From the NCBI RefSeq assembly GCF_044324785.1, contig NZ_CP172127.1: 64,000 nt of DNA. One strand, written 5' to 3'. The position numbers were made by a program, and so were the translations under genes. The DNA is from Escherichia coli (GTDB lineage: Bacteria; Pseudomonadota; Gammaproteobacteria; Enterobacterales; Enterobacteriaceae). Every line of letters begins with the position of its first letter. Position 1 is the first letter of the stretch. The notes below the pieces were generated by a model. The model was not told the DNA's origin and made no database searches. It worked only from the letters and a program-made list of their open reading frames with translations. Shown here one piece after another: positions 14,058 through 33,110 of the stretch.

Positions 14058-15242
14058 CTAAATATCTTTAATAAACAGCAGACAAATCATCGCAATACCC
14101 AGCATTCCTATCGCCAGCCAGAACAACGCGTGGTAGCTCCAGATTTCAACCATAATTCCGTCAACAGAGCCGGCGATAATCCAGCCGACACGTGAGGTAT
14201 TTGCATATAACGTTGTCGCAGAGCCTATTTTTTCAGGCATCAGATCCTGAAAATAAAGCATGCCGATACCACAGAGAATACCAAGGAAGATGGCATTTAG
14301 AATTTGCAATTCCAGCTCAACTGCCGGAGTTGTCGCCATGAGTACGCTGGTGTAAAAACACATTCCACTCACGATAGCAATGAGCATTAATAGTCGCTTA
14401 CCAATACGTTTCATGTAATAGCCTGCGATTAACATCATCGGAATTTCCAGACCGGCAGCGATACCAATCATTTCTCCAGCCAGTTTATCGGTTAGATGCA
14501 GTTCATCAATAATAAATAGCGGCATATTTATCATGTAGAGATTATTCGCCGCCCACATCATTGAACAGACCACAAAAAGTAGCCGCGTATCCCGCTTCCT
14601 ATGGGTGGAGGGTAAAATTTCTATGGGTTGGGTAACGACAGGAATATTTCTTTGTATTGATGGCAAAAACAACCAGACTATCAGTCCGCAAACAACAAAT
14701 GCGATGGCAGCGGTGAGATACATCACTTTAAAACTAAATCCCATTGCCAGTTCATAAGCGAGCGGTGGCCCGATAACCCAGGCAAGCGAGATCTGAGCAC
14801 GTAAAAATGTACTGAACATGACCGTCTCACGGCCTGTTCTGTCGGCGTGTTCACGGGCGAGGGCGAACATTTGCGGGTTTGCAGTGGAAGCAAAACTACT
14901 CAGAAGTACGCCCGTTGAGAGGAGAATGAAGTAGTTGCGATTCCACGCAAAAAGCGTGCAGGCCAGCACTCCAAATAAGCAACATAGCAGGATCAGTAAT
15001 TTACGGTCGCCTTGTTTATCGGAGTGTCTTGCCAGAAATTGACTGACCAGAATTCCCATAATAGCGCTACCGGTGAAGAAAAAACCTACCATTATAGGAC
15101 GAGCTTTCAGTTCATCTGCGAGGAATATACTTAGGGTAGGAGTCTGAAGAGCGCCCGCAATACCAGTCAGAAAGGCGACAAGTAAAAATGCCGCGGCAGT
15201 GAGATCAAGTATTTTTGATGGAGTGGTAGCCGTTTTTTGCAT
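14058..15242 (-). CDS. setC: MFS sugar efflux transporter SetC
   Basis: 394 aa, 12-TM MFS profile, immediately adjacent to the selC-side attachment region as in K-12. Confidence 0.8.
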   Translation of the reverse strand: MQKTATTPSKILDLTAAAFLLVAFLTGIAGALQTPTLSIFLADELKARPIMVGFFFTGSAIMGILVSQFLARHSDKQGDRKLLILLCCLFGVLACTLFAWNRNYFILLSTGVLLSSFASTANPQMFALAREHADRTGRETVMFSTFLRAQISLAWVIGPPLAYELAMGFSFKVMYLTAAIAFVVCGLIVWLFLPSIQRNIPVVTQPIEILPSTHRKRDTRLLFVVCSMMWAANNLYMINMPLFIIDELHLTDKLAGEMIGIAAGLEIPMMLIAGYYMKRIGKRLLMLIAIVSGMCFYTSVLMATTPAVELELQILNAIFLGILCGIGMLYFQDLMPEKIGSATTLYANTSRVGWIIAGSVDGIMVEIWSYHALFWLAIGMLGIAMICLLFIKDI

Positions 15243-15639
15243 TCTTCTGAATCACCGGGCGACAAAATATAACTGAGTTACAAATAAGTACCAGTCGAAT
15301 GAGTATTGTATTAAGAATTTTTGAGTATCGCTGATACAACCAGAAATCAATGCTAGCGCAATATTATAGGGCCAGCAATTGAGATTATTAGCAAAAGCAT
15401 GTTAAGAATTAATTACCGAATTTATATATTAATTATATTAAGGCATTGAGCTATTTTTGATAGTAAAAATAAAACAAGTTGATTTGATATATTAAATGAA
15501 TAAATTAATCTTGATGGCAGTCTGATTATTGGTGAAGTTTATAGGTCAGTTTTTTCGCCAGCGGTTAAAGAAATAGAATCGTCGTATAAAAAAGGGTGTT
15601 CTGGGGCGAGTAAAACAACATCTTCACCTTAATGGCGAT

Positions 15640-15860
15640 ACAGTTGGCTGAGAGTCAGCAGGGGGGCAAACCACCTGCAAATAAACACGGCGCATGCTGG
15701 CGCGAATATCGCGGATGCGTTCGAGGACAGAAGAACCGACAGGCGGATTCTTCAGTCGCTCATCGTCCATCACAAAACCTTTGATCAGGTATTCCTGAAG
15801 CCGATTGAATATTGAGCAGTAGAAAATCTCTGGATTGACAGTATTACAAGGGGTTGGAGA
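15640..15860 (-). pseudogene. Short coding-like remnant, possibly RhuM-family (minus strand: …NRLQEYLIKGFVMDDERLKNPPVGSSVLERIRDIRASMRRVYLQV…)
   Basis: Open frame without a proper start; the peptide resembles the RhuM virulence-protein family known from selC-associated islands. Recognition is from memory only. Confidence 0.3.
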
Positions 15861-15868
15861 ATGTCAGA

Positions 15869-15892
15869 AGAGGCATTTTGGCGGAAGATCAC
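15869..15892. repeat. Distal attachment-site direct repeat: 24-bp copy of the selC 3' end (tggcggaagatcacaggagtcgaa)
   Basis: Exact 24-bp identity with 57010..57033, which is the 3' end of tRNA-Sec. Confidence 0.8.
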
Positions 15893-16037
15893 AGGAGTCG
15901 AATATGAATGTTAATGTTTTGATTTTAAATGATTAATCTGTGTTGGATAAATGAGTAACCCCCATAAGAACCCCCAAATAACTTTGTGTAAGGGAATGAA
16001 GCTAAAATACACAATCGAATCAATTCTTAGAGCTTTA

Positions 16038-16880
16038 TTATGAAGGTAACACTCCCGGATAGTGTTTCGCAATAATATCATTCAGCCTGTCAACCAGTTC
16101 TGGTTTCCTGAACCTGATGTGCGCGGAGCCTTTCTTAAAGTATCTGATGCTGAACATCTCATCTTCATAGCATTCTTTACCCTGAACAGACCGGATGTGA
16201 TCATCCAGACGAATAGTGATGTTTTCCCGGTTGTCGGGGATCGGTTTGCCGCTGAACAGATGTAGCATTCTTTCCAGGTCGACGAGTCGGTCAGTCTGTT
16301 GCCCGGTGATAAGATGAAACCCCCACCGGTCCCACCTCACCAGGTTGTTGACGATAATTTTACTGCCAAATTTGCAGGGGCAATTGGTTTTGTAATTCCA
16401 GCTCAGTCCCCTGAAGACGTTGATCACCCCTCGCTCAAACACCTCATCCTTATTCTGGTGTAGTTGTTCAAATGTGATCAGAATGTTCGCTTCACTGATT
16501 TCCGGAAAATTATCGTACTCCAGTGACCGGTACCATGTATCACGGGCCTGTGCATCCATTAAGGAAAGCATCCCTGAACGTTGCATCAGGTCACGCCAGA
16601 TTTCGCGATCGAGATTGCGTGTGATGGCTTTCATTGCGGTTTCCGGTTTCTCCATCAGCCAGCAGCCGCAGCGAAAATCCTGTTTCATGGCCCAGCCCGG
16701 GGCGGCTTTACCGCCAATACTTTCTGTCATTGCTGATATTTCAGCCAGTTGCCGGATAAGTGTGTCGATTTGCAGCAGTGTACTCTTTCGTACAGCCAGA
16801 ATGTGGCGGATACTGGTTGAGCAGATAACGTCCGTATGCCCGGTGACCACTTCCGGACGGGAGATTGTGATGTCTGACAT
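16038..16880 (-). CDS. Conserved island-end protein (DUF4942-like, methyltransferase-like)
   Basis: 280 aa; terminal gene of the yeeP…cbtA-type module; a truncated second copy of its 5' end is at 30782..30940. Confidence 0.5.
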   Translation of the reverse strand: MSDITISRPEVVTGHTDVICSTSIRHILAVRKSTLLQIDTLIRQLAEISAMTESIGGKAAPGWAMKQDFRCGCWLMEKPETAMKAITRNLDREIWRDLMQRSGMLSLMDAQARDTWYRSLEYDNFPEISEANILITFEQLHQNKDEVFERGVINVFRGLSWNYKTNCPCKFGSKIIVNNLVRWDRWGFHLITGQQTDRLVDLERMLHLFSGKPIPDNRENITIRLDDHIRSVQGKECYEDEMFSIRYFKKGSAHIRFRKPELVDRLNDIIAKHYPGVLPS

Positions 16881-16964
16881 TATCGGTTTCCCTTTTGGTT
16901 TATAAACGAAAACGCCAGCCCTGTTCAGGCTGGCGTCAGTGGAATGAAGTATGGTGAGTGAGGC

Positions 16965-17390
16965 TCACGCGCTCAGGTGAATGAGTTGCAGGTGACGCAG
17001 GGTGCGGACATCCTCCCTGGCCTGTTCGATACAGGGCAACAATGCTGCCGAATCCGTTTTATCCTCATCGTTGTCGAAAATAATTCCGGACCCGCAGTCG
17101 ATATTGTCCTGCAGCCACGCAATGAGGATATCCAGCGCTGTTTCAGTGGTTAATGGCATCACGCTCTGTATCACTGTATTGTCTTCCGGCAACTGATGAG
17201 AGCTGGCAGAAGTCGCCGGTGTTTCGGTAGCGTCACGTTCATCCACCACGCGGAGTGAATAACCGTTTTCAGCGACCTTGTTAATCAGTTCAGTGAGCTC
17301 AACACCATCAATGTCAACGACAATTCGCCCTATATTCAGTGCCTGTACGTTAACGCTGTCTGCTTCCAATGTCAGGGCCAGTTTCATCAT
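16965..17390 (-). CDS. Hypothetical protein downstream of cbtA (YeeW-like position)
   Basis: 141 aa, acidic; overlaps the cbtA stop by 4 bp; its 3' end is duplicated at 30616..30705. Confidence 0.55.
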   Translation of the reverse strand: MMKLALTLEADSVNVQALNIGRIVVDIDGVELTELINKVAENGYSLRVVDERDATETPATSASSHQLPEDNTVIQSVMPLTTETALDILIAWLQDNIDCGSGIIFDNDEDKTDSAALLPCIEQAREDVRTLRHLQLIHLSA

Positions 17391-17761
17391 TTCGCCTCCG
17401 GATACTTACCCAGGGTAATGTTATTTACCGTTCTGTAATTGTCGCGGGTCATCAGGCCGGTCGCCCTGCGAGCCCGGAGGATATCGATGCTGTTTATTAA
17501 CTGAGAGCGGGTACAGGCGCTGAATCCCGGCTGGTTGGTACGCACCAGCGCGTATTTTTCCACGAGAAAGTTCACCGCATCACACAGTGAAATGCCTGCC
17601 TCAATATGCAGCTCAATCACGCGTTCATCCGCGAACGGTGTGTCATTCAGCGTAAGGCTGTAATGCTGGTCCAGTAACCGGGTGAGCAGTGTCTGCCAGA
17701 TGGTGACGGGAGACGGGCAGCACGATGCCTCCCGTACATGCGTGTCGGGTAATGTTTTCAT
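17387..17761 (-). CDS. cbtA: CbtA/YeeV-family type IV toxin (cytoskeleton-binding toxin)
   Basis: 124 aa; …WQTLLTRLLDQHYSLTLNDTPFADERVIELHIEAGISLCDAVNFLVEKYALVRTNQPGFSACTRSQLINSIDILRARRATGLMTRDNYRTVNNITLGK… matches the family. Confidence 0.85.
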   Translation of the reverse strand: MKTLPDTHVREASCCPSPVTIWQTLLTRLLDQHYSLTLNDTPFADERVIELHIEAGISLCDAVNFLVEKYALVRTNQPGFSACTRSQLINSIDILRARRATGLMTRDNYRTVNNITLGKYPEAK

Positions 17762-17850
17762 AATGAAGATTTTCCTGATATGCAGAGATAAAAAATGGGA
17801 CAGTGGCGTGGTGAAAACACCAGGCCGGAGCAGAAGATTATTCTGATGAT

Positions 17851-18219
17851 TTACTTTTTCGTTTCGGGCGTCGGATAAACAGCCAGATAAACGTAACCAC
17901 AGGAGCCGAGGGTGTCGGCTTCACAGGTCAGCCCCTTCGCATACAGTGTCACGGTATGCTGATGGCGGGGATTCAGTTCACCGCTGGTGAGCATGAGCTC
18001 CAGTTGTTTCATCGGCAGCGGAAAGGCCTGGTCCGGATGGTACGCATCCGCATCTCTGAACCGGCCTCTGATACCGGCACGGTCGGCAAGGTAATGCAAC
18101 CGGTTACCCTCCTGCACCAGACGTGCCCCGAAACAGGGCGTCACGGTGCAGGGCAGTCCCCACCAGAGGCGGTCGTGATTGTCGTCGTGATGCGTTGTCC
18201 CGGGGAGTGTGTCTGACAC
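17851..18219 (-). CDS. cbeA: CbeA/YeeU-family antitoxin
   Basis: GTG start (VSDTLPGTT…) gives 122 aa matching YeeU; the track ORF 17851..18339 has an unsupported N-terminal extension. Confidence 0.8.
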   Translation of the reverse strand: MSDTLPGTTHHDDNHDRLWWGLPCTVTPCFGARLVQEGNRLHYLADRAGIRGRFRDADAYHPDQAFPLPMKQLELMLTSGELNPRHQHTVTLYAKGLTCEADTLGSCGYVYLAVYPTPETKK

Positions 18220-18268
18220 GATAAAATCCTCACAGAAAATCGTTGAATGATAGTTTAACTTTGACAGG

Positions 18269-18913
18269 TCAGCCGGTGCGCAGACCGGCTTCGGTGAAGG
18301 TGTATTCGTTGATGAGAAGGGCCTCATCCACAGGGGCATCTGAGGTCAGCCTGTTGTGCTCGTTTTCCAGTTGACGGTACAGCCATAAGGCCAGGTCGCG
18401 CAGGGCTTCGCTGACAGCGGCTTCCGCATCTGTTGTCATAGTCTGACCAGTCGGACTGTTCCGGGTAACAGTGATATCCATGCTGTACGGATGGCAGTAG
18501 CGTCCCCGGCGGTGGATTTCAGCCTGCAGTTGCCAGAAGTTACGCTTCTGCACCGCCTGCAGGGCATCCGCGATACGATGGAGTTCATGCTCCTGTGGGG
18601 CATACTTCCGGATTATCCGGGCTGTCGCCGGCTGCCAGTGCCAGCGTCCTTCAAAACAGGCTCCGTCCCCCTGGCTGCAGCATCCGCTGAACCAGATGCA
18701 CGGCTCTTCCATAAACCTGCCGTTGCTGAGCCGGAAAACGCGCTGGCGGAGGTCAATTCCGAAAATGTCACAGACCGCCCTGAAGTCCTCATACACGTTT
18801 TCATACCAGTTGCTGTCAGCATGATGCTGACGGTACCCGTCGCGGGCTTTTCCCCGTACCGGGCAGGAAAGTTCATCCAGCGTATACACTGTGATGGTGA
18901 TAATGCTGCTCAT
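18269..18913 (-). CDS. Hypothetical protein (214 aa) between the DUF987 gene and the antitoxin
   Basis: Long ORF in operon orientation; Cys/Trp-rich segment CIWFSGCCSQGDGACFEGRWHW; no family recognised. Confidence 0.5.
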   Translation of the reverse strand: MSSIITITVYTLDELSCPVRGKARDGYRQHHADSNWYENVYEDFRAVCDIFGIDLRQRVFRLSNGRFMEEPCIWFSGCCSQGDGACFEGRWHWQPATARIIRKYAPQEHELHRIADALQAVQKRNFWQLQAEIHRRGRYCHPYSMDITVTRNSPTGQTMTTDAEAAVSEALRDLALWLYRQLENEHNRLTSDAPVDEALLINEYTFTEAGLRTG

Positions 18914-18931
18914 CAGAATCCCCTTTCTGAT

Positions 18932-19153
18932 TCAGTTCAGGGTGACGCTCATCAGCCGGACATACGGGCCAAAACTGTCCTTACGGCGTTCAGCAAACAC
19001 GGCCAGCACACCGGGAATATCCTGTACTTCACGACCGGTATACGTCTCAGCACTGCCGTGCCAGCGGTACTTACCGGTGCAGAACGGAAATAGACGGGAT
19101 GCAGGATGCTGTTGGTGAATACGCATGGCTTCACCACGGGTGATAATTTTCAT
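18932..19153 (-). CDS. Small YeeT-like protein (DUF987)
   Basis: 73 aa; conserved position between the RadC-like gene and the toxin-antitoxin pair. Confidence 0.65.
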   Translation of the reverse strand: MKIITRGEAMRIHQQHPASRLFPFCTGKYRWHGSAETYTGREVQDIPGVLAVFAERRKDSFGPYVRLMSVTLN

Positions 19154-19215
19154 AATGGGATACCTCTGAAGACAGAAGATAAAAGTGAAAACAGGTGTGA
19201 TGTGGTTGTGACGGG

Positions 19216-19692
19216 TTAAAGCAGACCATGTTCGGCAAAGGAGAAAACCTGGCTGCCACCGACTATCAGATGGTCCGGCACCCGGATATCCACCAGGCCC
19301 AGTGCCTGTACCAGACGTTCCGTGATAAGGCGGTCTGCCTTGCTGGGTGTGACTTCACCGGACGGGTGATTGTGCGCCAGCACCACGGCAGCGGCATTGT
19401 GGTACAGGGCGCGTTTAATCACTTCCCGGGGATGGACTTCCGTGCGGTTGATGGTGCCGGTGAAGAGGGTTTCACCGGCAATCAGCTGATTCTGGTTGTT
19501 CAGATACAGCACCCGGAATTCTTCACGCTCCAGTCCCGCCATGTTCAGAATCAGCCATTCCCGTGCCGCATGCGTGGAGGTGAAGGCCACGCCGGGTTCA
19601 TGAAGATGGCGGTCCAGGGCTTTCAGGGCCCGCTGAATGAGGCTGCGCTCTCTGGTTGTCATTTCTCCGGGCAGAAAGGAAATCTGTTGCAT
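19216..19692 (-). CDS. RadC-like JAB-domain protein (YeeS/YfjY family)
   Basis: 158 aa; JAMM motif region …VVLAHNHPSGEVTPSKAD…. Confidence 0.85.
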   Translation of the reverse strand: MQQISFLPGEMTTRERSLIQRALKALDRHLHEPGVAFTSTHAAREWLILNMAGLEREEFRVLYLNNQNQLIAGETLFTGTINRTEVHPREVIKRALYHNAAAVVLAHNHPSGEVTPSKADRLITERLVQALGLVDIRVPDHLIVGGSQVFSFAEHGLL

Positions 19693-19707
19693 TGTTCCGG
19701 CCCCCTT

Positions 19708-20193
19708 TCAGTCAATGATGCGCATAATGGCGCTGCATTCCGGATGCTGCAGGGCGTAATCCCGCAGACGGTAATAATGAACCGTCATGGCATAACACTC
19801 CGTACGGCAGGCGTGATGACTGTACGTCATCAGACAGGCAGCAATGCCGGCGGCTTCCGGGCTCATTTCAGCGCGGTTACCGTTCATGGCATTGAACAGT
19901 ACCCATGTTTCGTCATCATCATCATCCGGTTCGGGGGCCATAAATGCCCCGCCGTTGTTCAGGGTGTACAGATTCCAGATACCACCGCAGTAGTCTTCGC
20001 ACAGACGGTCCATCCAGCCGAAGACACGGGGCTCCAGGGTCACCCACTGTGGAATGAGGCCAAAATGCTGCGGCCAGAAGCTGATGCGCTGTTCATCAGG
20101 GACGGGAGTGGCAACCAGTTGAGACTGGTTATTCCCTGATGCAGTAGTTACGGAAACAGAAGGTGTGGTGGAGCTATGCGAAAAGGTTGTCAT
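19708..20193 (-). CDS. Antirestriction protein, KlcA/ArdB family
   Basis: 161 aa; acidic stretch PEPDDDDDETW and characteristic position upstream of the RadC-like gene. Confidence 0.7.
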   Translation of the reverse strand: MTTFSHSSTTPSVSVTTASGNNQSQLVATPVPDEQRISFWPQHFGLIPQWVTLEPRVFGWMDRLCEDYCGGIWNLYTLNNGGAFMAPEPDDDDDETWVLFNAMNGNRAEMSPEAAGIAACLMTYSHHACRTECYAMTVHYYRLRDYALQHPECSAIMRIID

Positions 20194-20284
20194 GAGATGA
20201 TTCCTTATAAAAAGTAAATGAATGGAAGAATGCCTGGGGACTGGTACAGACGTGAGTCAGGGCTGCACTTTCAGGGAAACAGCA

Positions 20285-21103
20285 TCAGCGCATGCTCTCC
20301 AGCAGCGTTTCTGCCATCACCCACAATGCGCGGTTGAGTTTTATATCGGTATCAATGCTGTGAATGGCCCGGGTATGGATACGTTTTCCTTTTGCACTGC
20401 GACCGGAAATCCCGCCTTTCAGCATATTCTCCTGGATGGTCTGATAAGCACTCCACAGGTCCTTACCGTAATCCTCCCGGCGTCGTGGTGTCAGAATGTC
20501 GGCGGTGGTGACGGGCTGATGTTCGTCACCATAACGGTAAGTCAGTGCCGCCTGTGCCAGCGCCTGGCGTGCCGGTGGCGGCAGGACCAGCGACTGCATG
20601 GCATCACGCTTCTCCTCTATCCGGTCAAACACGCCCACCACCTCGTAAGCCCCTTCAATGACTCTGTCCACCACATTTCCCCGGTGCGGAACACGCACTT
20701 CCCCCAGAGACTGACCGCAGACGCATCCGTTCTGGCAGACGAACCTGAAGTAACCCGGCAGCATCTGGTAGCTGGAGGTACCGTCATGAGAGTTGAGCAG
20801 AATAATTTCAGGGACATGTTGTCCGTTTATCTCCCCGTCACGGCGCAGACGCAGCATGTGTTTGGTATACCCCCGGCGGCCCGGGTCACGTACGCGGGTC
20901 TGGCAGGCGAAGAATGGCTGAAAGCCTTCCCGCTGCAGGCTTTCCAGCACGGTGATGGTGGGGATGTATGTATAGTTCCGGCTCCGGGAGGTGTGTTTAT
21001 CTTCCCCGAAAATCCCGGGCACATGGTGCATCAGCTCTTCACGGGTCAGCGGACGGTCACGGCGTATCTGGTTCGCATAACCAAAACGACTGGCTAATCG
21101 CAT
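20285..21103 (-). CDS. DUF932-family protein (YfjQ/YafZ-like)
   Basis: 272 aa; immediately downstream of the GTPase gene, as in CP4-type elements. Confidence 0.7.
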   Translation of the reverse strand: MRLASRFGYANQIRRDRPLTREELMHHVPGIFGEDKHTSRSRNYTYIPTITVLESLQREGFQPFFACQTRVRDPGRRGYTKHMLRLRRDGEINGQHVPEIILLNSHDGTSSYQMLPGYFRFVCQNGCVCGQSLGEVRVPHRGNVVDRVIEGAYEVVGVFDRIEEKRDAMQSLVLPPPARQALAQAALTYRYGDEHQPVTTADILTPRRREDYGKDLWSAYQTIQENMLKGGISGRSAKGKRIHTRAIHSIDTDIKLNRALWVMAETLLESMR

Positions 21104-21288
21104 ACTTTGCTCCTTATCAGTGGTTAAGACTGAATGACGTAATCAATGAAAAAGCCGCGTCTCACGGAGAAGACGCGGCCTGATGGATGAAATGAATGAG
21201 GGTTTACCGAAGCCCTTCAGCATTGTGGTGACGCAACCGGAAATGCGTTTCCTGGTTATCGCCGGGGCCGGTCAAAAAGCGGGGACAT

Positions 21289-22173
21289 TCAGAACAGGCG
21301 ATCCCACAGTGTGATCAGCAGGCGGATAATGCGATCACGGGCTTTGCGCAGAAGCTGCAGCATCCAGGCCGGAAAGCTGAACCGGGCAATGGCAGCGTCA
21401 AAACTCTGGCCGATGGCGTCACCAAAAGCCTGCTGTGCGTGTTGCTGATCCTGCGCAGTGCGCTTTTCATTCCGGATATGCGAATAAACCGCGCTGGTTG
21501 CCTGTGGTGGCAGGGCGTGGATCATCAGAGACACAAATGCCGGAAGATTCCAGCCGGCAGGAGCGGCAACGGGGAGTACCGGAAATGATGAAGGGAACAG
21601 GGTTGCCACCCGGGCTGTCACCGTCGCCAGCGAGAGTTCCTGGTGACGGGACGGGCATTTTTCTGTGTCGTTCCATTCTTCAGCAGGAAATACGCGATCG
21701 GCATGGCTGAGAACAAACAGAAAACGCGAGGGATCTGCACCTTCATTCAGTAAAAACTGATGCATGGCGATGTCGGCAGCATACGCACGTTCATCAGCCC
21801 GCAGGATCCAGATAATCAGATCCAGTTCGGGCAGTAACTGACTGTAAAGTGCCCGGTATTCCTGATCATGCTGTGGTGTTTCGCCAGTGCCGGGCAGATC
21901 GACCAGCGTCATTCTTCGTTCACCGGGCTGAAAGGTAAGACGATGAGCCTGACGGGTGCAGCCGTTCAGCGGATGCGTGGCGCAGACACGGGACTGAAAA
22001 ATGGCATTGCACAGGCTGCTTTTTCCGGCACCGGATTTACCCATAATGCCAATCACGGGCTCGTAATGAATAACACTGTGGAGATGTTCAAGGATTTTCT
22101 GGCGAATTTCTTCAGGAAGAAACGTCAGATATGATTTCACTTGTGCGGAGAGGGAAGAATGGCTGAATGACAT
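21289..22173 (-). CDS. GTPase-family protein (YeeP/YfjP/YkfA-like, P-loop)
   Basis: 294 aa; Walker A GIMGKSGAGKSSL and G-motifs DLPG…; first gene of the CP4-like module. Confidence 0.8.
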   Translation of the reverse strand: MSFSHSSLSAQVKSYLTFLPEEIRQKILEHLHSVIHYEPVIGIMGKSGAGKSSLCNAIFQSRVCATHPLNGCTRQAHRLTFQPGERRMTLVDLPGTGETPQHDQEYRALYSQLLPELDLIIWILRADERAYAADIAMHQFLLNEGADPSRFLFVLSHADRVFPAEEWNDTEKCPSRHQELSLATVTARVATLFPSSFPVLPVAAPAGWNLPAFVSLMIHALPPQATSAVYSHIRNEKRTAQDQQHAQQAFGDAIGQSFDAAIARFSFPAWMLQLLRKARDRIIRLLITLWDRLF

Positions 22174-22275
22174 ACCGGTATCCTGTTGATTTCACTGAAC
22201 CGGATCACACTAATCCGGTTTATCATTCAGGTAATATGGGCGTGAAAAAATCTGGAGTGACAAAGTTCGGGAGGA

Positions 22276-23229
22276 GTGATGGCATCACTGTCGATTAATA
22301 CGCTACGCCGAATGAGCATTTGTAAAAGTCAGGCCTGGAAAGATACCCAGCGAATACTGAAGCGTAGTGGACTTGTGTACAGAGGGGAACGGTCAGAATC
22401 GTTTGATCCTGAGAAACATTTTAATCGTTATACGGTGCGTTATCTGTACCTGCTTAACATAATTGCGCTTAAGATAAGGTCGGTTAGTAAATTTTCCTGT
22501 TGGATCGAGGTGGGACAATGCCATCGTATGACTGGTAAACATTTATCTCTTAATGCCCCGCCTTTTATGCTGATTCCGCGTAGTATCCGGAGAAAAGTGG
22601 ATGGATTCAGACAGTCAAAAGGTGAAGCAACCCCAAAATCGGCTCAACCGTTCACGGGCAGTTTGTATGAGGTTTTGAGAAAGGAGAGCGATTCAGCTAA
22701 GCTGGACGCATGGATTGCTGAACTGCCTCTGAACTTGCAGGAGGAGGGAAAGGAAATCTCAGTCATGGGATTTAGTCCACGGGCTGTGGCCCGACCTGTT
22801 CTTCGGTCAGCATCCCCGACGTTTGAACTGTTTTATCAGGAGTATCAATCCCTAAGATTAAAATCTGTTTTTAAATTTGAACCAAGATTTGAACAACTTT
22901 TAACAAGACTGAGCTTTAGAAAACAATCAATTCTCAGAAAACAACAATACAGGGTTAAATCGCAATTACTGGAGAGACTGGGGAATGTGTTGTTTTTCAC
23001 GTCGCTTTATAACCAGGGATGTTTAGAGGAGTTTATAAATGCACTTGTGGAAAAGGAGGACATTTATCTGAAAATGTCCCCTGGGGAGGAAAAGGTGAAA
23101 GCACACCAGAAAATGGTTAACTACATTGAAGCGTTCTGCAACAAAATGACGGAAAAATACCTGATGCCCGCAGCAAGCAGACACTACAAAAAGAAGAAAA
23201 TCGCCAGGAGCGAAAGTGGTGAAAGTTAA
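22276..23229 (+). CDS. Hypothetical protein (317 aa, basic), cargo gene of unknown function
   Basis: Long ORF divergent from the GTPase gene; no recognisable motifs; start codon uncertain. Confidence 0.5.
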   Translation: MMASLSINTLRRMSICKSQAWKDTQRILKRSGLVYRGERSESFDPEKHFNRYTVRYLYLLNIIALKIRSVSKFSCWIEVGQCHRMTGKHLSLNAPPFMLIPRSIRRKVDGFRQSKGEATPKSAQPFTGSLYEVLRKESDSAKLDAWIAELPLNLQEEGKEISVMGFSPRAVARPVLRSASPTFELFYQEYQSLRLKSVFKFEPRFEQLLTRLSFRKQSILRKQQYRVKSQLLERLGNVLFFTSLYNQGCLEEFINALVEKEDIYLKMSPGEEKVKAHQKMVNYIEAFCNKMTEKYLMPAASRHYKKKKIARSESGES

Positions 23230-24101
23230 TCCAGTCTACCGTACAGAATCAGTTGTTCCAGAATAGCCTGCTGTGTTGTTTTCCGCTCTCTGGTCAGTCT
23301 GTCCAGAGCGCTTTTTGCGGATGGCGATATCTTTACGTTGATTTGTACCCGTTTATCTTTTTTTCCATCGATAAACTGTTTTCTGAATGCATTGTGCATC
23401 TTGTCGAAAAATCTTTCTTTTGCAGCGAATCCTAGGTGAAATTCTTTTGGCGTCAGTAAACAGGGTGTGTCTGTGGGGAATAACATTTTTAGTAAAACTA
23501 CAATGGCAATATATCTTTCGTTATCATTTACAGGATTAAACCAGGAAAGATATGTGGGTGAGATACGTGCATCAATATATTCCCATGCCCATTTCAGTTG
23601 TTCGGTATTCTTTTTAAGCCATTTGGCTTCGTTTCTCTTTTCGAGTCCCAGCCAGTTTTGATGCATTATTGAGATAATCCGATCTGCTTCCCCATAAAGG
23701 ATTAACGCATTAATCCATTTCCCTATAACATTCAGTCGTGTTTCATGACTTGAAGGAATAATTGTCATGGGGTTATCCTTCATAACGATCACCCCCTTCA
23801 AGGCAGAGTTGAACTCAGATTCATTATTAAGTTTAAGTTTTTCGGGAACTGTATGAGACATAATTAACCAGAACCAGAATGCTGCAATTTCATTTTTTCT
23901 GATCCATTCAGGTATGTGATTATCTGCCAGATTATTATCATTCAATAAATGCTCAGTTGTTTTATTTTTCCAGTCATATCTATTCACGTTATAACCGCCT
24001 TTATATTGTTTCATCTGATTACGCCTCAATCGTTTTCTTTTCTGGTGATTTTCACCATCACATGTCAGTTGTATATGCAAGGGGATCAATAAAAATATCA
24101 C
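23226..24101 (-). CDS. Hypothetical protein with a C-terminal ribbon-helix-helix-like segment (start probably the internal Met at about 24014)
   Basis: 291-aa ORF; C-terminus KRVQINVKISPSAKSALDRLTRERKTTQQAILEQLILYG resembles CopG/RHH DNA-binding motifs; convergent with and overlapping the previous gene by 4 bp. Confidence 0.5.
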   Translation of the reverse strand: MIFLLIPLHIQLTCDGENHQKRKRLRRNQMKQYKGGYNVNRYDWKNKTTEHLLNDNNLADNHIPEWIRKNEIAAFWFWLIMSHTVPEKLKLNNESEFNSALKGVIVMKDNPMTIIPSSHETRLNVIGKWINALILYGEADRIISIMHQNWLGLEKRNEAKWLKKNTEQLKWAWEYIDARISPTYLSWFNPVNDNERYIAIVVLLKMLFPTDTPCLLTPKEFHLGFAAKERFFDKMHNAFRKQFIDGKKDKRVQINVKISPSAKSALDRLTRERKTTQQAILEQLILYGRLD

Positions 24102-25711
24102 CCTGCAAGCACTTCAAAGCTGATTATGGGGATATTCTAGAACTATTCACAAAACTATTCCAGACATATCAAGAACTATTTCTTGACCTATTCATAATAA
24201 AATAAAACATGCTATCAACTACGGCTCATATTCTCCTTGGGGGTGTCGTTGTACTGTTCGACTGTTCTTGTGGTCAGATTAACAATCTGAAGAGTAAAAG
24301 CGACAGTAATCTGTCTGTTATAGTGGCGATAAAAACACTGAATGCGCATCCTGTATGTGAAATCCTGTCATGTAGAGCAGTAAGCAATGACAGACATGCA
24401 TGTTATATGTGAAGGGGGCCGGGAGACGACATAATCAGTATGGCTGTCATTCTGGTTGTAAAACGCGATCACTTTCCGGGGGTAAAAGATGATATGGAGG
24501 TTGACAAACGGTTTGCTTCGGATTGTCTTTTCTGGGGCCTGAAATACGAGGGCAGAAAAATAATTCCAGAGTAAATCTGCTCTGTTTTTAGGACAGAAAA
24601 CTCCATGCTGGCTGTAAAAGTGAAAAATTAACACCCAGTATGTATGGAAGTCTGAAGATGTTGAGAATGTCGGTATGATACTATATACACATATTTTACT
24701 AAGTATTTTTACTAAGCATTTCAGTAAGTGTTATACACGTATTTTCTACTAAGTGTTTTACCAGACATACACGTGTTTTCATAAACAGCCCTATAAGTGT
24801 TTTCATTAAGCATTGCTGTACACATTGCTTTGTCTGAAACACATCCAGTTTAGTAAATCTTTACGTTAGCTAAAATCAGTTTAAAGCTGCTGTAAAACCT
24901 TTCTGTTTAAGCAATCAATCTGCTATTCGATTTTACTGATGTTGCGTTTAACCTTTTCTGAGATTTCGAGTTTCGACGTTAGCATGAGAAAAGTATCTTT
25001 ACGCTAAATCAACCCGAACTTTCCTGAAGTAATCTGACGTTTTTTTCGATGTGCTTACGACGATTCTGTTAAACGACTTTCTGGATGTTTTGATAACAAT
25101 CAGATTGAGGCATTAACGATTCCTGACGTTTTCTTTTCCGTGTAAGGTCATTCTTTTTGTCATGAGGTTTCTTCTTGCATTGCGAAAGTGTGATGAACGG
25201 TTTTGGTGTTTTTGATTCAGATAAGGTTTACGTTATCGATGGTTAATCGTTTTTATGGTGCGTAGTGAAACGTAACTTTTTCAGGATGAGAAAATCGATT
25301 CTGATGTTGGTGATTTTTGTTCTTGTGGCGGGGTTTATCTGTAAACAGGTTTTAAACGTGTCATTCACATCCGTGATTGAGTTGTGTGATTAAGCTGTAG
25401 GTTTTGGGGTTGTTGTTGATTTGCATTACCAGGAAGCGTTCTGGTTGCGTTTCTGGTGTTTTGTTCGAATGTTCTGTGGATCCTTTTCCCTTCTGACTTT
25501 TCTCGTTGTCCATGTCGTTTTTAAATCCATTCGCTGTTCTTGAGTGTTTTTACCCTGCGTGTAGAATTATCTTTTCGTTCCGGGATGGTTTGTTCCGTTT
25601 CAATCACTCTTAATCAGAGAGTTGTAGCATTGCTCAATGCCGGATGCCGTAAAGTTTTACCGCGGTGATTAATGATGTGAAGTCAATCCAAATCAACGGA
25701 GATCTCTCATC
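24102..25711. other. About 1.6-kb non-coding, AT-rich region with short direct repeats upstream of Gp2-like genes
   Basis: No ORF above 90 aa on either strand; repeated TACTAAG motifs within 24690..24770 and two copies of GTGTTTTCAT. Confidence 0.5.
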
Positions 25712-26443
25712 ATGAATCAACCAATACACAATGCTTACTGGTTATCCCGTTTTGAAAGTATTCTCAACAGTGCCCTGGCGCAGCACCGTGCCGTCTCGTT
25801 AATCCGGGTGGATTTACGTTTCCCTGAGTATATGCCTGCCACCATCATGGATACCGATTTAGATTCAGCGGTGATTTCTCGTTTTTTTGCATCCCTGAAA
25901 GCAAAAATTCAGGCTTACCAGCGACATAAACGACGTGCCAACAAGCGTGTGCGTGCAACCACTCTGCGTTATTTCTGGTGTCGGGAGTTTGGCAAGGAAA
26001 AAGGCAGGAAACATTATCACGTGATATTACTGCTCAACAAAGATACCTGGTGCTCGCCAGGGGATTTCACCGTTCCTTCTTCGCTGGCGACACTGATCAA
26101 GCTGGCATGGTGTAGTGCTCTGCATCTTGAGCCCTGGCAGGGTAATGGACTGGTTCATTTTTCCAGGCGGACGCCTTTCCGTAAACCGACATCATCTGAT
26201 GCTCGCCCTTCTTCCGATGATACGCCTTTGTCGGGTGGATGTTCTGAAACCAGGAAGGCTTCAGACAAAAAGCCGGGTGAAGCCGCTGTTCTCTGGATCA
26301 AGCGTGGTGATGTGGAAGCGCTGCAGAAAGCCCGGAACAGAGCCAGTTATCTCGTGAAATATGAGACGAAGCAGCATGACGGTTCCGGGCAACGTAATTA
26401 TGGTTGCAGTCGTGGGCCGGGGCGTCTGCTGGATGGCAGGTGA
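25712..26443 (+). CDS. Inovirus Gp2-like / YagK-YfjJ family protein (HUH-type)
   Basis: 243 aa; HYHVILLL motif and family-typical N-terminus (AYWLSRFESILNSAL…). Confidence 0.7.
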   Translation: MNQPIHNAYWLSRFESILNSALAQHRAVSLIRVDLRFPEYMPATIMDTDLDSAVISRFFASLKAKIQAYQRHKRRANKRVRATTLRYFWCREFGKEKGRKHYHVILLLNKDTWCSPGDFTVPSSLATLIKLAWCSALHLEPWQGNGLVHFSRRTPFRKPTSSDARPSSDDTPLSGGCSETRKASDKKPGEAAVLWIKRGDVEALQKARNRASYLVKYETKQHDGSGQRNYGCSRGPGRLLDGR

Positions 26444-26769
26444 GCCCTGTAAAACGACATCCGGTGCCTGAGCTTATGCTACAGGACGTTGGCTGACGCC
26501 CTTAGCTCGTTTTCTGAAAAAGTCGTCCTGAAGTCATGCAACGGTATTTTTCTCTGCTTTCGCTCCTGGAAACACTCCGTCGGTAAAACCTTACTGTCCT
26601 GCTTAATGATGTGAACCGAAGTCAACGGAGAGCATTCATTCTGAACCTGCATCCGGTGTTCTGTCCCTTGTCGGTTACCTGATCTTCCCGTTCTGCCGCG
26701 GTTTTTCACTTATTCCATCAACCCCATACGCAAGCCATAACACGTCAGCGCATCCACGGGCAGGACGCG

Positions 26770-27372
26770 TTGTGGGCTGCGTATAACGGAACATATCTTA
26801 TGAATGCTATCCCTTATTTCGACTATAGCATGGCGCCCTTCTGGCCATCTTATCAGAACAAAATCATCGGCGTTCTCAACCGTGTGTTGCGCGAGCAGTC
26901 CTGCTCCCGAATACGGCGGATCCTGCTTCGTCTGCCGGGGGAACATGGCAACATCTTCAGCGACAGAAAAACCTGGTTCGGTATGGCCTTTATCGAAACC
27001 GTCAGTGCGCTGATGAATGCAACCCCCGGACGCGACCTCTGCTGGCTCCTGACACGTCATCCTGAAAAACCGGAATACCACGTGGTGCTGTGCGTCAGAC
27101 AGGAATATTTCGACGGCCCTGAGCTGGACCGGTTGATTCTGGATGCCTGGAGCAACGTACTGGGCTTCGCGTCACCGGGTGAAGCAGCACCGTACCAGAA
27201 ACAGATAACCCGGGATGTGGTGCTGGACAGTTGTTCACCGGACTGCGAAGAGAGACTCAAAGAGCTGATATGGGCGTTCAGTGATTTCGCCCGCGATCGT
27301 CGTGGTGTGCGCGATCCGGAAGCCCGTTACCTCGCCGGTAATCCCTGGTATCCCGTAGCAGGCCAGCTCTGA
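26770..27372 (+). CDS. Second Gp2-like/YagK-family paralogue (putative)
   Basis: 200 aa; EYHVVLCV motif in comparable position. Confidence 0.5.
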   Translation: MWAAYNGTYLMNAIPYFDYSMAPFWPSYQNKIIGVLNRVLREQSCSRIRRILLRLPGEHGNIFSDRKTWFGMAFIETVSALMNATPGRDLCWLLTRHPEKPEYHVVLCVRQEYFDGPELDRLILDAWSNVLGFASPGEAAPYQKQITRDVVLDSCSPDCEERLKELIWAFSDFARDRRGVRDPEARYLAGNPWYPVAGQL

Positions 27373-27440
27373 AAGCTCAGCTCAGCAGATTCACCCGCAT
27401 TTGCCCAACATTCATAAATCTCACAGAGGACATTCTGACC

Positions 27441-27677
27441 ATGTTGACCTCAATGACAGGTCACGACAGCGTATTGCTGCGTGCCGACGATCCCCTGATC
27501 GACATGAACTACATCACCAGCTTCACTGGTATGACCGACAAATGGTTTTACAAGCTGATCAGTGAAGGCCATTTCCCTAAACCCATCAAACTGGGGCGCA
27601 GCAGCCGCTGGTACAAAAGTGAAGTGGAGCAGTGGATGCAGCAACGAATCGAGGCATCACGAGGGGCAGCAGCATGA
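27441..27677 (+). CDS. alpA: AlpA-family phage/island regulatory protein (excisionase-like DNA-binding)
   Basis: 78 aa; …NYITSFTGMTDKWFYKLISEGHFPKPIKLGRSSRWYKSEVEQWM… typical AlpA helix-turn-helix. Confidence 0.8.
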   Translation: MLTSMTGHDSVLLRADDPLIDMNYITSFTGMTDKWFYKLISEGHFPKPIKLGRSSRWYKSEVEQWMQQRIEASRGAAA

Positions 27678-27877
27678 AACGTGTTGTAATGCCGGTACGC
27701 TGGCAATGTGCAAAATACCAGCGTTGGTATTGTGGAAATCAGCCCTGTCCCTGGTGCTGGCGACCTGCTGCCCCCGTCTGTCATTCCTCGTTCTTCGCTG
27801 TAACAGGCATCGTACCGGTCTCGGCGTGCTTTCCTGCGTACCGACACCGGTTCAGCAACATTCAAGGGGATCAAATC

Positions 27878-28426
27878 GTGCAAATAACCGAAACCGTACT
27901 TTCAGAGCCGGTGGAAATCCGGCGTTTTATTCAGCAGGCGGTGGATCACTGGCCGCGTCTGCTGGCCGTCCACTTCACACTCCATTCGGCAGAAGGAAAC
28001 ATCAACGGACAACAGATTCATGCATTCTGTACTTCCTTTTACCGACAGGTGCACGAGCGTATTACTGAACGTAATCACACGGCCAGTCCAGCACCACCGG
28101 TGGTATTACGCTGGTTGCGGGAACAACATGGAGGAGCAACAATGCGATGCCTGTTGCTGCTCAGCCAGACGAGCATTTGCCATCCACGGGTCAGTGCCAC
28201 GGTTGATGAAGAATGTTCGCAACGGGTGGATTTATTGCAACAGACATGGCGGGTGATAAGTGCTGACGGACAATGCCGGGTGGAAAGGTGTTTTCAGGCT
28301 GCCCGGGGTGATACATCCGGCCAGTATATTGCGTTAAAAACAGTTGCATTGTCTCTGGGGTTACCGGTTGTGACCGGTATTACCCATCGCCCGGTACAGC
28401 GCTGTACATTGATTACAGCTCAGTGA
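27878..28426 (+). CDS. Hypothetical protein (182 aa from GTG start with AGGGGA ribosome-binding site)
   Basis: The track ORF 27632..28426 overlaps alpA; a GTG at 27878 preceded by aagggga is a more plausible start. Confidence 0.4.
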   Translation: MQITETVLSEPVEIRRFIQQAVDHWPRLLAVHFTLHSAEGNINGQQIHAFCTSFYRQVHERITERNHTASPAPPVVLRWLREQHGGATMRCLLLLSQTSICHPRVSATVDEECSQRVDLLQQTWRVISADGQCRVERCFQAARGDTSGQYIALKTVALSLGLPVVTGITHRPVQRCTLITAQ

Positions 28427-28443
28427 ACAGCGCTGTTGTGCAG

Positions 28444-28746
28444 TCAACGAGGTTTTCTGTCTTTTCGTCGGTCATTCAGCATCATTAAACGGGTCTCTGC
28501 CTCTTTCTGTTCCTGTGGTGTCACTTCCCCGCACGGCTGACCGTTCAGGTTGTAACGGGCGCCACCTGCTATTAACGCACGGTAATAGCGCGGAGACTGC
28601 ACATAAGACGCCACTGCTGCATGTAATGTACCAGCGCCAAACGCCAGTTCTCGGATGGCGATATCCTGTATCAGGTCGTCAGGTATCCCCACTTTAAGTG
28701 GTTTTGTTTTTTTCCCGGTTGAATGACTCAGGCCAGAGTTCCACAA
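28444..28746 (-). CDS. Hypothetical small protein (100 aa)
   Basis: ORF only; possibly one gene with the upstream ORF 28761..28955 split by a frameshift. Confidence 0.3.
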   Translation of the reverse strand: MWNSGLSHSTGKKTKPLKVGIPDDLIQDIAIRELAFGAGTLHAAVASYVQSPRYYRALIAGGARYNLNGQPCGEVTPQEQKEAETRLMMLNDRRKDRKPR

Positions 28747-29295
28747 GACGAATAATGCGCTTACGGTTTTTGCTCTGGCGTTTTGTCATGTCGCCACGGT
28801 GTTTTATCAGCAGGTTTCTGTTTATCGTTCAACTGTGGTATCTGGTCACCGGCCTTCATTTTGTATGCTGTGTCCGTTTTATTCTGCAGCGGCGTTGCCG
28901 GTGATTTACTGAAAATACCCTGCGGTTTACGGTTAATGGTCAGAGTTACCATCAATTTTGTTACCTCGCGCTGTCAATGGAAGTAGTACCTCATCCGATA
29001 TCTGAAAATGTTTTCCGGTGGATGTTACAGCGAATTTCATGTAAGACATGTTGTTGTCGGTATTGTTCAGTACTGTGCGTTGTGAGCGTATTCGTTATCA
29101 GACAGAGGGGCAGGGAACAAATGGCGTGTGAAGCAATCAGCAGGTAATATTAATGGCAGGACCAGCAGGTTCTTTAAACAAACGAACATGCTGTAATTGA
29201 TATTTTGCTTATTGTATTTTCTTTTTAGTTATTAAATTAATTTATTTACGAAAAATTTTCTGCAGATACAGGATGGGAATTCAGTGGATTTGCCC

Positions 29296-30201
29296 CTATA
29301 TTTCCAGACACCTGTTATCACTTAACCCATTACTGGCCTGCTGCCGCAGATATTCCCGTGGCGAGCGATAACCCAGTGCACTATGCGGATGCCATTCGTT
29401 ATAATGCTCGAACGCCTCTGCAAGGTTCTTTGCTGCCGTTAACCCGTCTGGTTTAGGCATGATACTGATGTAGTCACGCTTTATCGTTTTCACGAAGCTC
29501 TCTGCTATGCCGTTACTCTCCGGACTCCGCACCGCCGTGTTCTTCGGTTCAAGCCCCAACATCCGGGCAAACTGCCGTGTTTCATTAGCCCGGTAGCATG
29601 AACCATTATCCGTCAGCCACTCTACTGGAGACGCCGGAAGCTCGTTGCCGAAGCGGCGTTCCACCGCTCCCAGCATGACGTCCTGTACTGTTTCACTGTT
29701 GAAGCCGCCCGTAGTGACCGCCCAGTGCAGTGCCTCACGGTCACAGCAGTCCAGCGCGAACGTGACTCGCAGTTTTTCTCCGTTATCACAGCGGAACTCG
29801 AACCCGTCAGAGCACCATCGTTGATTGCTTTCTTTCACGGCCACTTTGCCAGTATGTGCCCGTTTCGATGGCGGTACAGCGGTTTTTCGCTCAAGCAACA
29901 GCGCATTCTGGCGCATGATCCGGTAAACACGTTTGGCATTGATCGCAGGCATACCATCAAGTTCGGCCTGTCTGCGAAGCAGCGCCCATACCCGACGATA
30001 ACCATACGTGGGCAGCTCTCCGATAACATGGTGTATACGGAGAAGCACATCCGTATCATCTGAGTGACGGCTGCGGCGACCATCTTTCCAGTCATCGGTT
30101 CGTCTGAGAATTACGTGCAACTGCGCACGCGACACCCGGAGACAACGGCTGACTAAGCTTACTCCCCATCCCCGGGCAATAAGGGCGCGTGCGCTATCCA
30201 C
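29296..30201 (-). CDS. insD: IS2 transposase InsD (orfB)
   Basis: 301 aa with integrase-core motifs; recognised as IS2 InsD. Confidence 0.9.
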
Positions 30202-30524
30202 TTTTTTGCCCGTCCATATTCAACGGCTTCTTTGAGGAGTTCATTTTCCATCGTTTTCTTGCCGAGCAGGCGCTGGAGTTCTTTAATCTGCTTCATGGCG
30301 GCAGCAAGTTCAGAGGCAGGAACAACCTGTTCTCCGGCGGCGACAGCAGTAAGACTTCCTTCCTGGTATTGCTTACGCCAGAGAAATAACTGGCTGGCTG
30401 CTACACCATGTTGCCGGGCAACGAGGGAGACCGTCATCCCCGGTTCAAAGCTCTGCTGAACAATTGCGATCTTTTCCTGTGTGGTACGCCGTCTGCGTTT
30501 CTCCGGTCCTAAGACATCAATCAT
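30159..30524 (-). CDS. insC: IS2 InsC (orfA)
   Basis: 121 aa from [40 protein letters not shown]…; overlaps insD in the usual -1 frameshift arrangement. Confidence 0.9.
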
Positions 30525-30615
30525 CTGCTCTCCAATGACTAGTCTAAAAACTAGTATTAAGACTATCACTTATTTAAGTGATATTGGTTGTCTGGAGATT
30601 CAGGGGGCCAGTCTA

Positions 30616-30940
30616 TTCGGCAGCACTGTTGCCCTGTATCGAACAGGCCAGAGAGGATGTCCGTACCCTGCGTCATCTGCAGCTTCTGCACCAGAACCGG
30701 TGAATATCACTCACCACGCTTCATTACCCTGACGCCAGCCTGAATACGGCTGGCGTTTTCGTTTATAAACCAAAAGGAAAAATGATGATGTCAGATACCA
30801 CACTCTCCCGCCCGGAGGTGGTCAGCGGGCATACGGACGTTATCTATTCCACCTCAGTCTGCCACATTCTGGCTGTACGAAAGAGTACACTGTTGCCAAT
30901 CGACACAATTATCCGGCATCAAGTGAGCGATATCAGTTAA
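30616..30940 (+). pseudogene. Inverted partial duplicate of the module end: 3' fragment of the yeeW-like gene plus truncated 5' part of the DUF4942-like gene
   Basis: 30616..30780 is near-identical to the reverse complement of about 16880..17050; 30782 ATG gives MMMSDTTLSRPEVVSGHTDVIYSTSVCHILAVRKSTLL… then stops at 30938. Confidence 0.7.
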
Positions 30941-31340
30941 CCGATATAGATGGGGAAGATGCTTTTATCCGGATTGGATCTATCGCGATGGTGCGAGTAC
31001 CACTTGATGCAATGGAGCCTGTCGAGGCAGATGACGAGTAACAGAGCTCGGTATCTCAATCAGGACCTGATTGTCCTGGTTCGATGCCGAAAACCAGTGA
31101 TTTTTCGTGTTGGTATCTGTGTTGGTATAGGATGGTGTTGTTTATTATTAACAATTTTAAATCATGAGGTTAAATCGCATGTTTGAGTCAGGCCTTCGCA
31201 TCAATATCAAAACAATCAATAAATAAGTCCTTTAACCTAGCCACGACCAATCATTGATCAACCACGAAATCCTCTCCGAAACACAGTCCCAATCCCTAAA
31301 CCCTACGCTCAACATCGAAACCCGCTTATCACCATCCCCC

Positions 31341-32210: not shown

Positions 32211-32389
32211 AGCGTTACATTGGCAGCTAAATAAATGCGATGATGCTCGCAAAATCCTTGCCGATCAACCTACCAGATGCGGCGATTCTACGTGGATCGC
32301 GATTTAATTATCACTGCCAGTTATTTGTTCGAAAAGACCATAGCTTTCTATTTATACTCAAGCTTCGCGCCATCAGATAGCTATGTCTT

Positions 32390-33028
32390 ATGAAAAAACT
32401 ACCGGACCATTTATCCAGGGAATGCATCATCGCCGCCATTCGCGCTTACGATGCAGGCGTTGCGCATCAGTTTAAAAGCGCGCGTCTGTATGAGATCGAG
32501 TTTGAGGGGCGTCGGTATCCTTCAAAAGCCATCGTCGGGTTAGCGGCCACGCTTGCGACGGGAACGGAATTTACCCCGGCGGATTTCAGCGGGGGGATTA
32601 AATCAAAATGCGTGCGTCTGTTACTGGAGCAAGGATTTACGATCGCGTCGCAGGGCGCTGGCGATGACGAGGTTGCGCTTTTCCCCGATGAGGGGCAGAC
32701 GACCATGGAGTACGTGGAAGGGGCGGCGTTGCAGGTGGTGGTCAATCGCTATGAGCGCGACCGTCAGGCTCGTCAGGCGGCGCTTCGCCTGCATGGCTGC
32801 CAGTGTCAGGTATGCGGTCTGGATATGGCCAGCCGCTATGGCGATATCGGCCAGGGCTTTATCCATATCCACCATCTCATCCCGCTGGCCGGGATAAAGC
32901 AGGACTACCGCCTGAACCCTGAAACCGATCTGATCCCGGTATGTCCCAACTGCCATGCGATGCTGCACCGGCGAGATCCGCCGTTTACCCCCGAAGAGCT
33001 GAAGGCCCGGCTGCGCCCCACAGACTGA
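32390..33028 (+). CDS. McrA-like HNH endonuclease with a distinct N-terminal domain
   Basis: C-terminus CQCQVCGLDMASRYGDIGQGFIHIHHLIPLAGIKQDYRLNPETDLIPVCPNCHAMLHRRD parallels the E. coli McrA HNH motif (C.NCG…HHVIPLS…CPNCH..LH). Confidence 0.65.
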   Translation: MKKLPDHLSRECIIAAIRAYDAGVAHQFKSARLYEIEFEGRRYPSKAIVGLAATLATGTEFTPADFSGGIKSKCVRLLLEQGFTIASQGAGDDEVALFPDEGQTTMEYVEGAALQVVVNRYERDRQARQAALRLHGCQCQVCGLDMASRYGDIGQGFIHIHHLIPLAGIKQDYRLNPETDLIPVCPNCHAMLHRRDPPFTPEELKARLRPTD

Positions 33029-33072
33029 CATCCGACAGCGCTCGCTTTAATTACATCAAACACACCACAAAC

Positions 33073-33099: not shown

Positions 33100-33110
33100 C
33101 CCACTCTCTT

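Follow-up and report, generated by a model that had tools for sequence, protein, structure and literature searches.

The window analysed here, a 64,000-nucleotide stretch of an Escherichia coli chromosome, carries a 41.1-kb genomic island integrated at the tRNA-Sec gene selC (Table 1). The island is bounded by a direct repeat, TGGCGGAAGATCACAGGAGTCGAA, that occurs exactly twice in the window, once as the 3' end of selC (57010-57033) and once at 15879-15902, an outcome matched by none of 100 shuffled sequences. Beyond the distal copy lie a short leader, a fragment with similarity to RhuM, an AT-rich spacer, and the genes setC and yicL. The fragment has the same orientation as selC and setC and starts 78 nt from the repeat, the same place relative to selC that it occupies in K-12. 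Because the open frame that contains it sits beyond the distal repeat while the island spans 15903-57009, it lies outside the island, between setC and the repeat, where the initial annotation had placed it.

Table 1. Coordinates of the features at the selC locus of the window
Feature	Position	Strand	Basis or remark
yicL	13024-13947	-	Beyond setC
setC, sugar efflux transporter gene	14058..15242	-	Flanks fragment
Spacer, rhuM fragment to setC	15243..15638	.	G+C down to 26% at 15300-15599
79-codon stop-to-stop open frame containing the RhuM fragment	15624..15860	-	ORF scan
RhuM-homologous pseudogene fragment	15639..15800	-	Pfam, BLASTP, tblastn, DNA alignments, RefSeq annotation of the K-12 equivalent
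81-nt leader, selC repeat to rhuM fragment	15798..15878	-	Alignments, profile test
Distal 24-bp direct repeat, attR core, displaced original selC 3' end	15879..15902	.	Alignment with K-12 selC and flank
Present selC island, 41.1 kb	15903..57009	.	P4-type integrase, cargo, CP4-like module ending in DUF4942
attR-side (P) arm of present island, with TTTGGGGGTTCTTATGGGGGT motif	15903..16037	-	Homologous to post-rhuM sequence of other genera
DUF4942 gene, end of CP4-like distal module	16038-16880
Tyrosine integrase (P4-type) of present island	55526..56710	-	Arm-DNA-bind_3, Phage_int_M, Phage_integrase domains
selC (tRNA-Sec)	57010..57104	-	3' 24 nt (57010-57033) = proximal repeat, attL core

The present island is 99.7% identical to that of the ST38 strain ES1, from whose annotation the cargo at 16881-55525 was listed. 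This cargo comprises a phosphoethanolamine transferase, PhoX, a xylA/MFS/GH43/porin sugar cluster, a phosphorothioated-DNA-binding restriction endonuclease with an adjoining HNH endonuclease, copies of ISEc8 and IS3, a truncated autotransporter-like gene and a CbtA/YeeU toxin-antitoxin pair. The flank at 15243-15902 is unlike that of ES1, where the repeat lacks 1 bp and where frameshifts and several substitutions occur; the best match to this flank found anywhere is 98.5% identical. The combination of an ES1-like island with a differing flank reflects either horizontal acquisition of the island or recombination of the flank.

The RhuM-like frame of about 75 codons described in the initial annotation is a genuine open frame of 79 codons, but only about 54 of these are RhuM-like. 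Frame residues 20-64 match profile positions 50-98 of 252 in the Pfam family PF13310 (Virulence_RhuM; E=8e-13), with a score of 48.7 bits for the frame against a gathering cut-off of 33.7, and in BLASTP residues 22-75 align with residues 121-185 of an intact 345-aa E. coli RhuM (E=2e-25). The proposed kinship with the RhuM family therefore holds at the protein level. By tblastn the homologous portion of the frame runs from 15800 to 15639 (54 codons), and the RhuM similarity leaves out 19 codons at the end towards selC and a few at the opposite end. The domain is incomplete: both ends are truncated, the frame lacks a start codon at its 5' end, and no ORF that does begin with one is longer than the 49-codon GTG ORF at 15624-15773. 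The fragment is thus a pseudogene piece and not a member of the RhuM family in the functional sense. NCBIfam holds no model for the fragment or for the intact RhuM protein, and no sequence-related solved structure was found for RhuM.

The alleles closest to the fragment are all from Escherichia: a locus labelled E. coli E69 (L007), that of strain Ec15103 (L002, WP_001280585.1) and that of E. albertii (L014). Over codons 121-185, which are kept, 119 of 130 ungapped nucleotides are identical to the Ec15103 allele (91.5%), and 9 mismatches in 129 nt separate the fragment from L007. Compared with the intact Ec15103 allele, the fragment has in-frame deletions of 24 bp near 15727/15728 and of 9 bp near 15671/15672. 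The 24 bp are retained in all 80 of the intact relatives fetched, so that their loss is the derived state.

The fragment is an ordinary feature and is already recorded in public annotation. In K-12 MG1655, RefSeq/PGAP annotates the same 162 bp, directly downstream of selC, as a rhuM pseudogene (SH04_RS26150; 'rhuM, RhuM family protein, pseudogene, missing N- and C-terminus'), and strain ES1 carries the same pseudogene annotation (RHO05_RS23855) beyond its island. These pseudogenes have locus and fragment in common with the window, and they too are flanked by setC and, opposite it, by selC or the repeat; DNA identity is about 97%. The window differs from K-12 in that the island places the fragment 41 kb from selC, and from both K-12 and ES1 in that its allele is without their lesions, which vary by lineage: K-12 has an internal stop and ES1 two 1-bp deletions, while the window and strain TUM14771 have neither. 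K-12 MG1655 and TUM14771 are both island-free here and carry the fragment sequence, in both cases annotated as a rhuM pseudogene, directly after selC; the present island thus integrated into a K-12-like selC, and the fragment belongs to the E. coli chromosome beside selC, not to the present island. Of 5426 complete E. coli genomes, 4643 have a match of 95-99% identity to the 660-bp stretch between setC and the repeat, with coverage of at least 80% in 3618, and the fragment-plus-setC region is accordingly counted as present in at least 3618 of the 5426. A literature search returned nothing relevant describing the K-12 rhuM relic.

Intact rhuM genes at selC show where such a gene normally stands. 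A 345-aa rhuM is found at selC in 845 E. coli genomes; in Ec15103 it starts 52 nt after selC, and a degenerate copy of the selC 3' end lies 105 nt past its stop codon, behind an island-type attR arm. Scanning one genome per species with a RhuM protein yielded 80 loci, about 24 of which have tRNA-Sec upstream on the same strand, often at a distance of 150-650 nt. A copy of the selC core follows 99-111 nt after the rhuM stop codon in 12 of the 80, as well as in Ec15103, and is preceded by the arm motif TTTGGGGG at about +30 in all such loci except L029. The 12 loci come from Escherichia, Erwinia, Serratia, Yersinia ruckeri, Pseudescherichia vulneris and Hafnia, and the arm of about 100 nt that follows rhuM can be aligned position by position with the distal end of the island in the window (15903-16037). 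A Salmonella assembly, described below, has the selC core copy and arm behind rhuM as well. In all, selC-integrated islands of at least seven genera carry rhuM as their last gene before attR.

Complete examples of a module ending in rhuM, arm and repeat were found in a Salmonella enterica assembly and in two metagenome contigs. Their gene order (DUF932, antirestriction, RadC, DUF987, CbeA, CbtA, DUF5983, DUF4942, rhuM, arm, repeat) is that of the module in the window's island, except that rhuM follows as an additional final gene. Integrase sequence lies between selC and rhuM in further loci (L009, L014, L068 and L020): a full-length gene in an Enterobacter sp. encodes a protein 86% identical to the integrase of the window, and fragments in E. 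albertii, Photorhabdus and Y. ruckeri are 84.6%, 73% and 54% identical to it, respectively. In E. coli IPCEC42 (L005, 5001-5230), a CP4-like island without rhuM directly adjoins the degenerate repeat and the flank that belong to the intact-rhuM haplotype. This arrangement indicates that the same site and arm are used by islands with and without a terminal rhuM.

Two groups of loci in the survey call for separate comment. Five come from metagenome bins labelled Sphingobacterium, Bacillota, Acidimicrobiales and Deltaproteobacteria (L036, L039, L079, L080 and L084); their rhuM is 68-78% identical to the E. coli protein, and in L036 and L039 an enterobacterial-type tRNA-Sec lies just upstream of it. 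Binning contamination is the likely source of these loci, the alternative being horizontal transfer. In Serratia sp. DD3, two rhuM loci each appear on four contigs with identical match-relative coordinates (L025-L028 and L047-L050), which looks like a duplicated assembly and not like eight real copies.

Given that rhuM is typically the last gene inside attR of selC islands equipped with a P4-type integrase and a CP4-like module, the fragment most likely represents what is left of an earlier island. We regard it as probable that it is a dead remnant of a selC island of the same family as the present one. An origin in such an element requires the fragment at island-free selC sites, and it is found there, in K-12. 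The fragment adjoins a displaced tRNA 3' end, and its gene is typical island cargo in relatives. The earlier, largely deleted selC element put forward in the initial annotation is supported by the presence of the fragment, which predates the present island, in K-12 and other island-free strains, by the rhuM-attR order and the arm homology, and by the integrase remnants in relatives. Direct observations are the homology to RhuM, the location with respect to the repeat, the occurrence in island-free strains, the rhuM-attR order elsewhere and the lineage-specific lesions.

The window itself keeps neither a distal repeat nor an attR arm belonging to the old element, nor its integrase or a remnant of one. 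Between 15878 and yicL there is no selC core copy (at up to 5 errors), no arm motif and no DUF4942 remnant, and tblastn gave no integrase match at 13948-15878. No boundary of the old element therefore survives in the window, and its presence at the site is read from relatives, as its own integrase, attR arm and repeat are absent. An element as the carrier of this particular copy, though well supported, is likewise inferred, as is the sequence in which deletions would have reduced it.

A different history appears unlikely, in which a native chromosomal rhuM, next to selC ancestrally in Enterobacterales, degenerated where it stood and the island copies are separate or accreted. The frequency of tRNA-Sec upstream of rhuM on the same strand in the survey, many times within 150-650 nt, and the yicJ-selC-rhuM synteny seen in several genera would be expected of such a gene. 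In Proteus, Morganella and Providencia, moreover, rhuM lies close behind selC and no repeat was found within 6 kb, a pattern that could mean a stable chromosomal gene pair. However, wherever the 3' flank of rhuM is preserved (Escherichia, Salmonella, Hafnia, Yersinia, Serratia, Erwinia, Pseudescherichia) the gene is followed by the arm and a selC core copy, and integrase remnants occur between selC and rhuM. The sequences that follow selC also share a P'-arm consensus, which the K-12 leader weakly resembles and which Proteus, Morganella and Providencia fit too.

The leader between repeat and fragment bears on the same point. Within 23 nt of the repeat it contains CCTCTTCTGA, which the P' arms of extant islands have at an equal offset, and in K-12 the leader weakly resembles the P'-arm consensus common to the post-selC sequences of selC-rhuM loci. 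Against a profile of 12 P' arms, the leader of the window scores a weak 6.1 bits, which none of 2000 shuffles reached, and the score of its final 58 nt is 4.8 bits, a level that 1 shuffle in 2000 attained; pairwise alignments of the leader with single arms were not significant. Searches with 54-nt and 77-nt pieces of the leader and with the AT-rich spacer, carried out against the island, the rest of the window and the 80 loci, matched only the same old layer, in L007, L087 and L004.

The locus labelled E. coli E69 (L007) holds two such layers in succession. Its yicL is only 88.6% identical to that of the window, which identifies it as a divergent Escherichia. Behind selC its order is the selC repeat, a P' arm like the attL of the window, the 3' end of DUF4942 and an intact rhuM; there follow an attR arm, a second repeat, a 111-nt match to the leader, about 40 nt more and the start of a second rhuM, of which only codons 1-17 are present before it is cut off by fliB. 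The match (L007 1871-1980 against window 15907-15798, repeat plus leader) is 83.8% identical over 111 nt (E=2e-27). Since the leader in L007 runs on into a rhuM start codon, the leader of the window is expected once to have done the same. A second locus of this kind, L087, keeps the leader and rhuM codons 1-17 stacked behind a younger rhuM element, and strain CUPF09 has the same old layer, with leader and 5' stub only. CUPF09 is the best match among the 5426 E. coli genomes, in none of which a complete copy of the old layer was found. From these alignments, K-12-type and E69-type chromosomes hold complementary pieces of one old rhuM copy, in front of which, in E69, a younger rhuM-bearing island has integrated. 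The intact-rhuM allele of the 845 genomes is probably a younger integration layer as well.

The segment on the far side of the fragment is variable in its own right. In one haplotype, that of the window, selC and yicL are separated by the rhuM fragment, the AT-rich spacer and setC; in another, also of E. coli, setC is absent and the interval holds an intact rhuM with the attR arm and degenerate repeat behind it, then an orphan ORF of 165 aa. Comparison of window 13977-15671 with L002 4193-5921 places sharp breakpoints 29 bp upstream of yicL and inside rhuM, and downstream the homology of the fragment to the intact allele ends at 15671/15672. The spacer, which at 15243-15638 contains no rhuM, integrase, arm-motif or repeat remnant, is part of this segment of about 1.7 kb (13977-15671) that separates the setC haplotype from the intact-rhuM haplotype. 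A third haplotype, seen in L007 and L087, has fliB at the position of setC, and a Citrobacter locus (L008) has a SulP transporter and a LysR regulator there. Because alternative haplotypes replace setC, setC may be a swapped-in cassette.

These comparisons suggest the following course of events. An earlier island with a P4-type integrase and a CP4-like module, and with rhuM as the last gene before attR, would have occupied selC, and its integrase and body would later have disappeared. A single deletion of some 400 bp, at the GCTT microhomology that marks the junction of leader and rhuM (15798-15801), would have removed rhuM codons 1-120 together with about 40 nt upstream. Everything past codon 185 would also have gone, including the attR arm and repeat, so that the AT-rich setC segment now abuts there. 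The present 41-kb island later entered the 3' end of selC by site-specific recombination, its insertion moving the old selC 3' end and the fragment downstream of it 41 kb away from the tRNA gene.

The absence of a start codon, the deletions and the lineage-different decay indicate that the fragment is most likely without function. It is very improbable that the stretch still acts, whether through the 49-residue peptide of the GTG ORF or as a regulatory or terminator region of selC or setC. The frame is open in the window and in TUM14771, the region is kept in thousands of genomes, and one weak terminator-like hairpin lies at 15638-15624, all of which a functional element might show. Against this, the K-12 stop is upstream of the short ORF and both ES1 frameshifts fall inside it, substitutions among four alleles are non-synonymous as often as synonymous, and about one-fifth of the RhuM domain is left. 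Rfam returned nothing at E<=1 for 15100-16100, and promoter and terminator scans gave counts equal to the shuffle expectation. Together, the lesions and the Rfam, promoter and terminator results form the pattern expected of a neutrally decaying pseudogene. Finally, that the fragment is part of the present island with its true end beyond the repeat, a reading suggested by proximity to the island end only, or that the RhuM similarity arose by chance, has a negligible probability and was rejected, given the identical arrangement directly after selC in island-free K-12 and TUM14771 and the E-values of the protein matches.

Among described systems, one close likeness is to the Salmonella pathogenicity island SPI-3, where rhuM lies at the selC-proximal end and is often deleted (PMC5966662, PMC3680342). 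The likeness concerns the Pfam family and the tRNA gene, which are the same; it extends to the Salmonella assembly in which DUF4942, rhuM, arm and repeat are followed by misL-like genes. Salmonella copies of rhuM differ in that they are usually intact, whereas the window has a 54-codon internal fragment. In that assembly (L089 7068-11442, Salmonella enterica GCA_022415805.1), a CP4-like island ends in DUF4942, rhuM, the attR arm and a 23-nt selC repeat (9151-9173), past which lie a P'-arm-like stub, ACTCTCCCGACCTCAACAA, and misL-like and marT-like SPI-3 genes. The order suggests that the part of SPI-3 nearest selC arose by accretion of an island of the same family.

The intact allele annotated as 'virulence RhuM family protein' in the 845 E. 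coli genomes occupies the same chromosomal position as the fragment and is 91.5% identical over the 130 overlapping nucleotides, but is full length, is backed by the attR arm and degenerate repeat and has the orphan ORF in place of setC. A role as toxin domain has been suggested for RhuM in the gene neighbourhoods of restriction-modification and defence systems (PMC3710099). The intact RhuM of Ec15103 matches the PADLOC PDC-S05 models end to end (E=3e-173), while the fragment of the window covers 65 of the 345 residues, short of full length, and cannot encode the protein; anti-phage defence is a candidate activity of the family.

In the accretion model developed for streptococcal ICEs and CIMEs, att-flanked elements accumulate in tandem and decay. 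L007 and the window resemble this situation in showing stacked, decaying elements at one att site, separated by copies of the repeat; the difference is that the selC elements are islands with P4-type integrases and not ICEs. Extending the argument, rhuM could be the conserved attR-adjacent terminal gene of one selC-island family, marked by a P4-type integrase and a CP4-like module, across Enterobacterales, in which repeated integration and decay stack rhuM fossils, a generalization to which we give somewhat less than an even chance. If it is true, what passes for 'backbone' in K-12 from selC to setC would be left over from an island, SPI-3 would carry the tail of a selC island of this kind at its sugR-rhuM end, and the rhuM-yicL segment, with setC, fliB or the orphan ORF, would be a swap site linked to integration and decay events. 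A resident selC integrase might still act in trans to mobilise minimal rhuM islets with flanking att sites, such as those of E. coli Ec15103 and P. vulneris.

On its own the fragment matters little, being a dead piece annotated by RefSeq in K-12 and in thousands of genomes. The comparative picture of an attR-terminal rhuM, with stacked fossils in Escherichia and Salmonella, is unsurprising at a known integration hotspot and may deserve a short note. The value of the fragment is as a marker: the DNA just downstream of selC, usually called core backbone, probably consists of the remains of an earlier island, one from the family whose members integrate at selC to this day. The order of rhuM, attR arm and repeat offers a simple readout of successive integration layers at the selC hotspot, and reading the layers in this way may help to delimit selC islands such as LEE, SHI-2 and SPI-3 and to annotate RhuM genes, which are candidates for a role in defence or as toxins.
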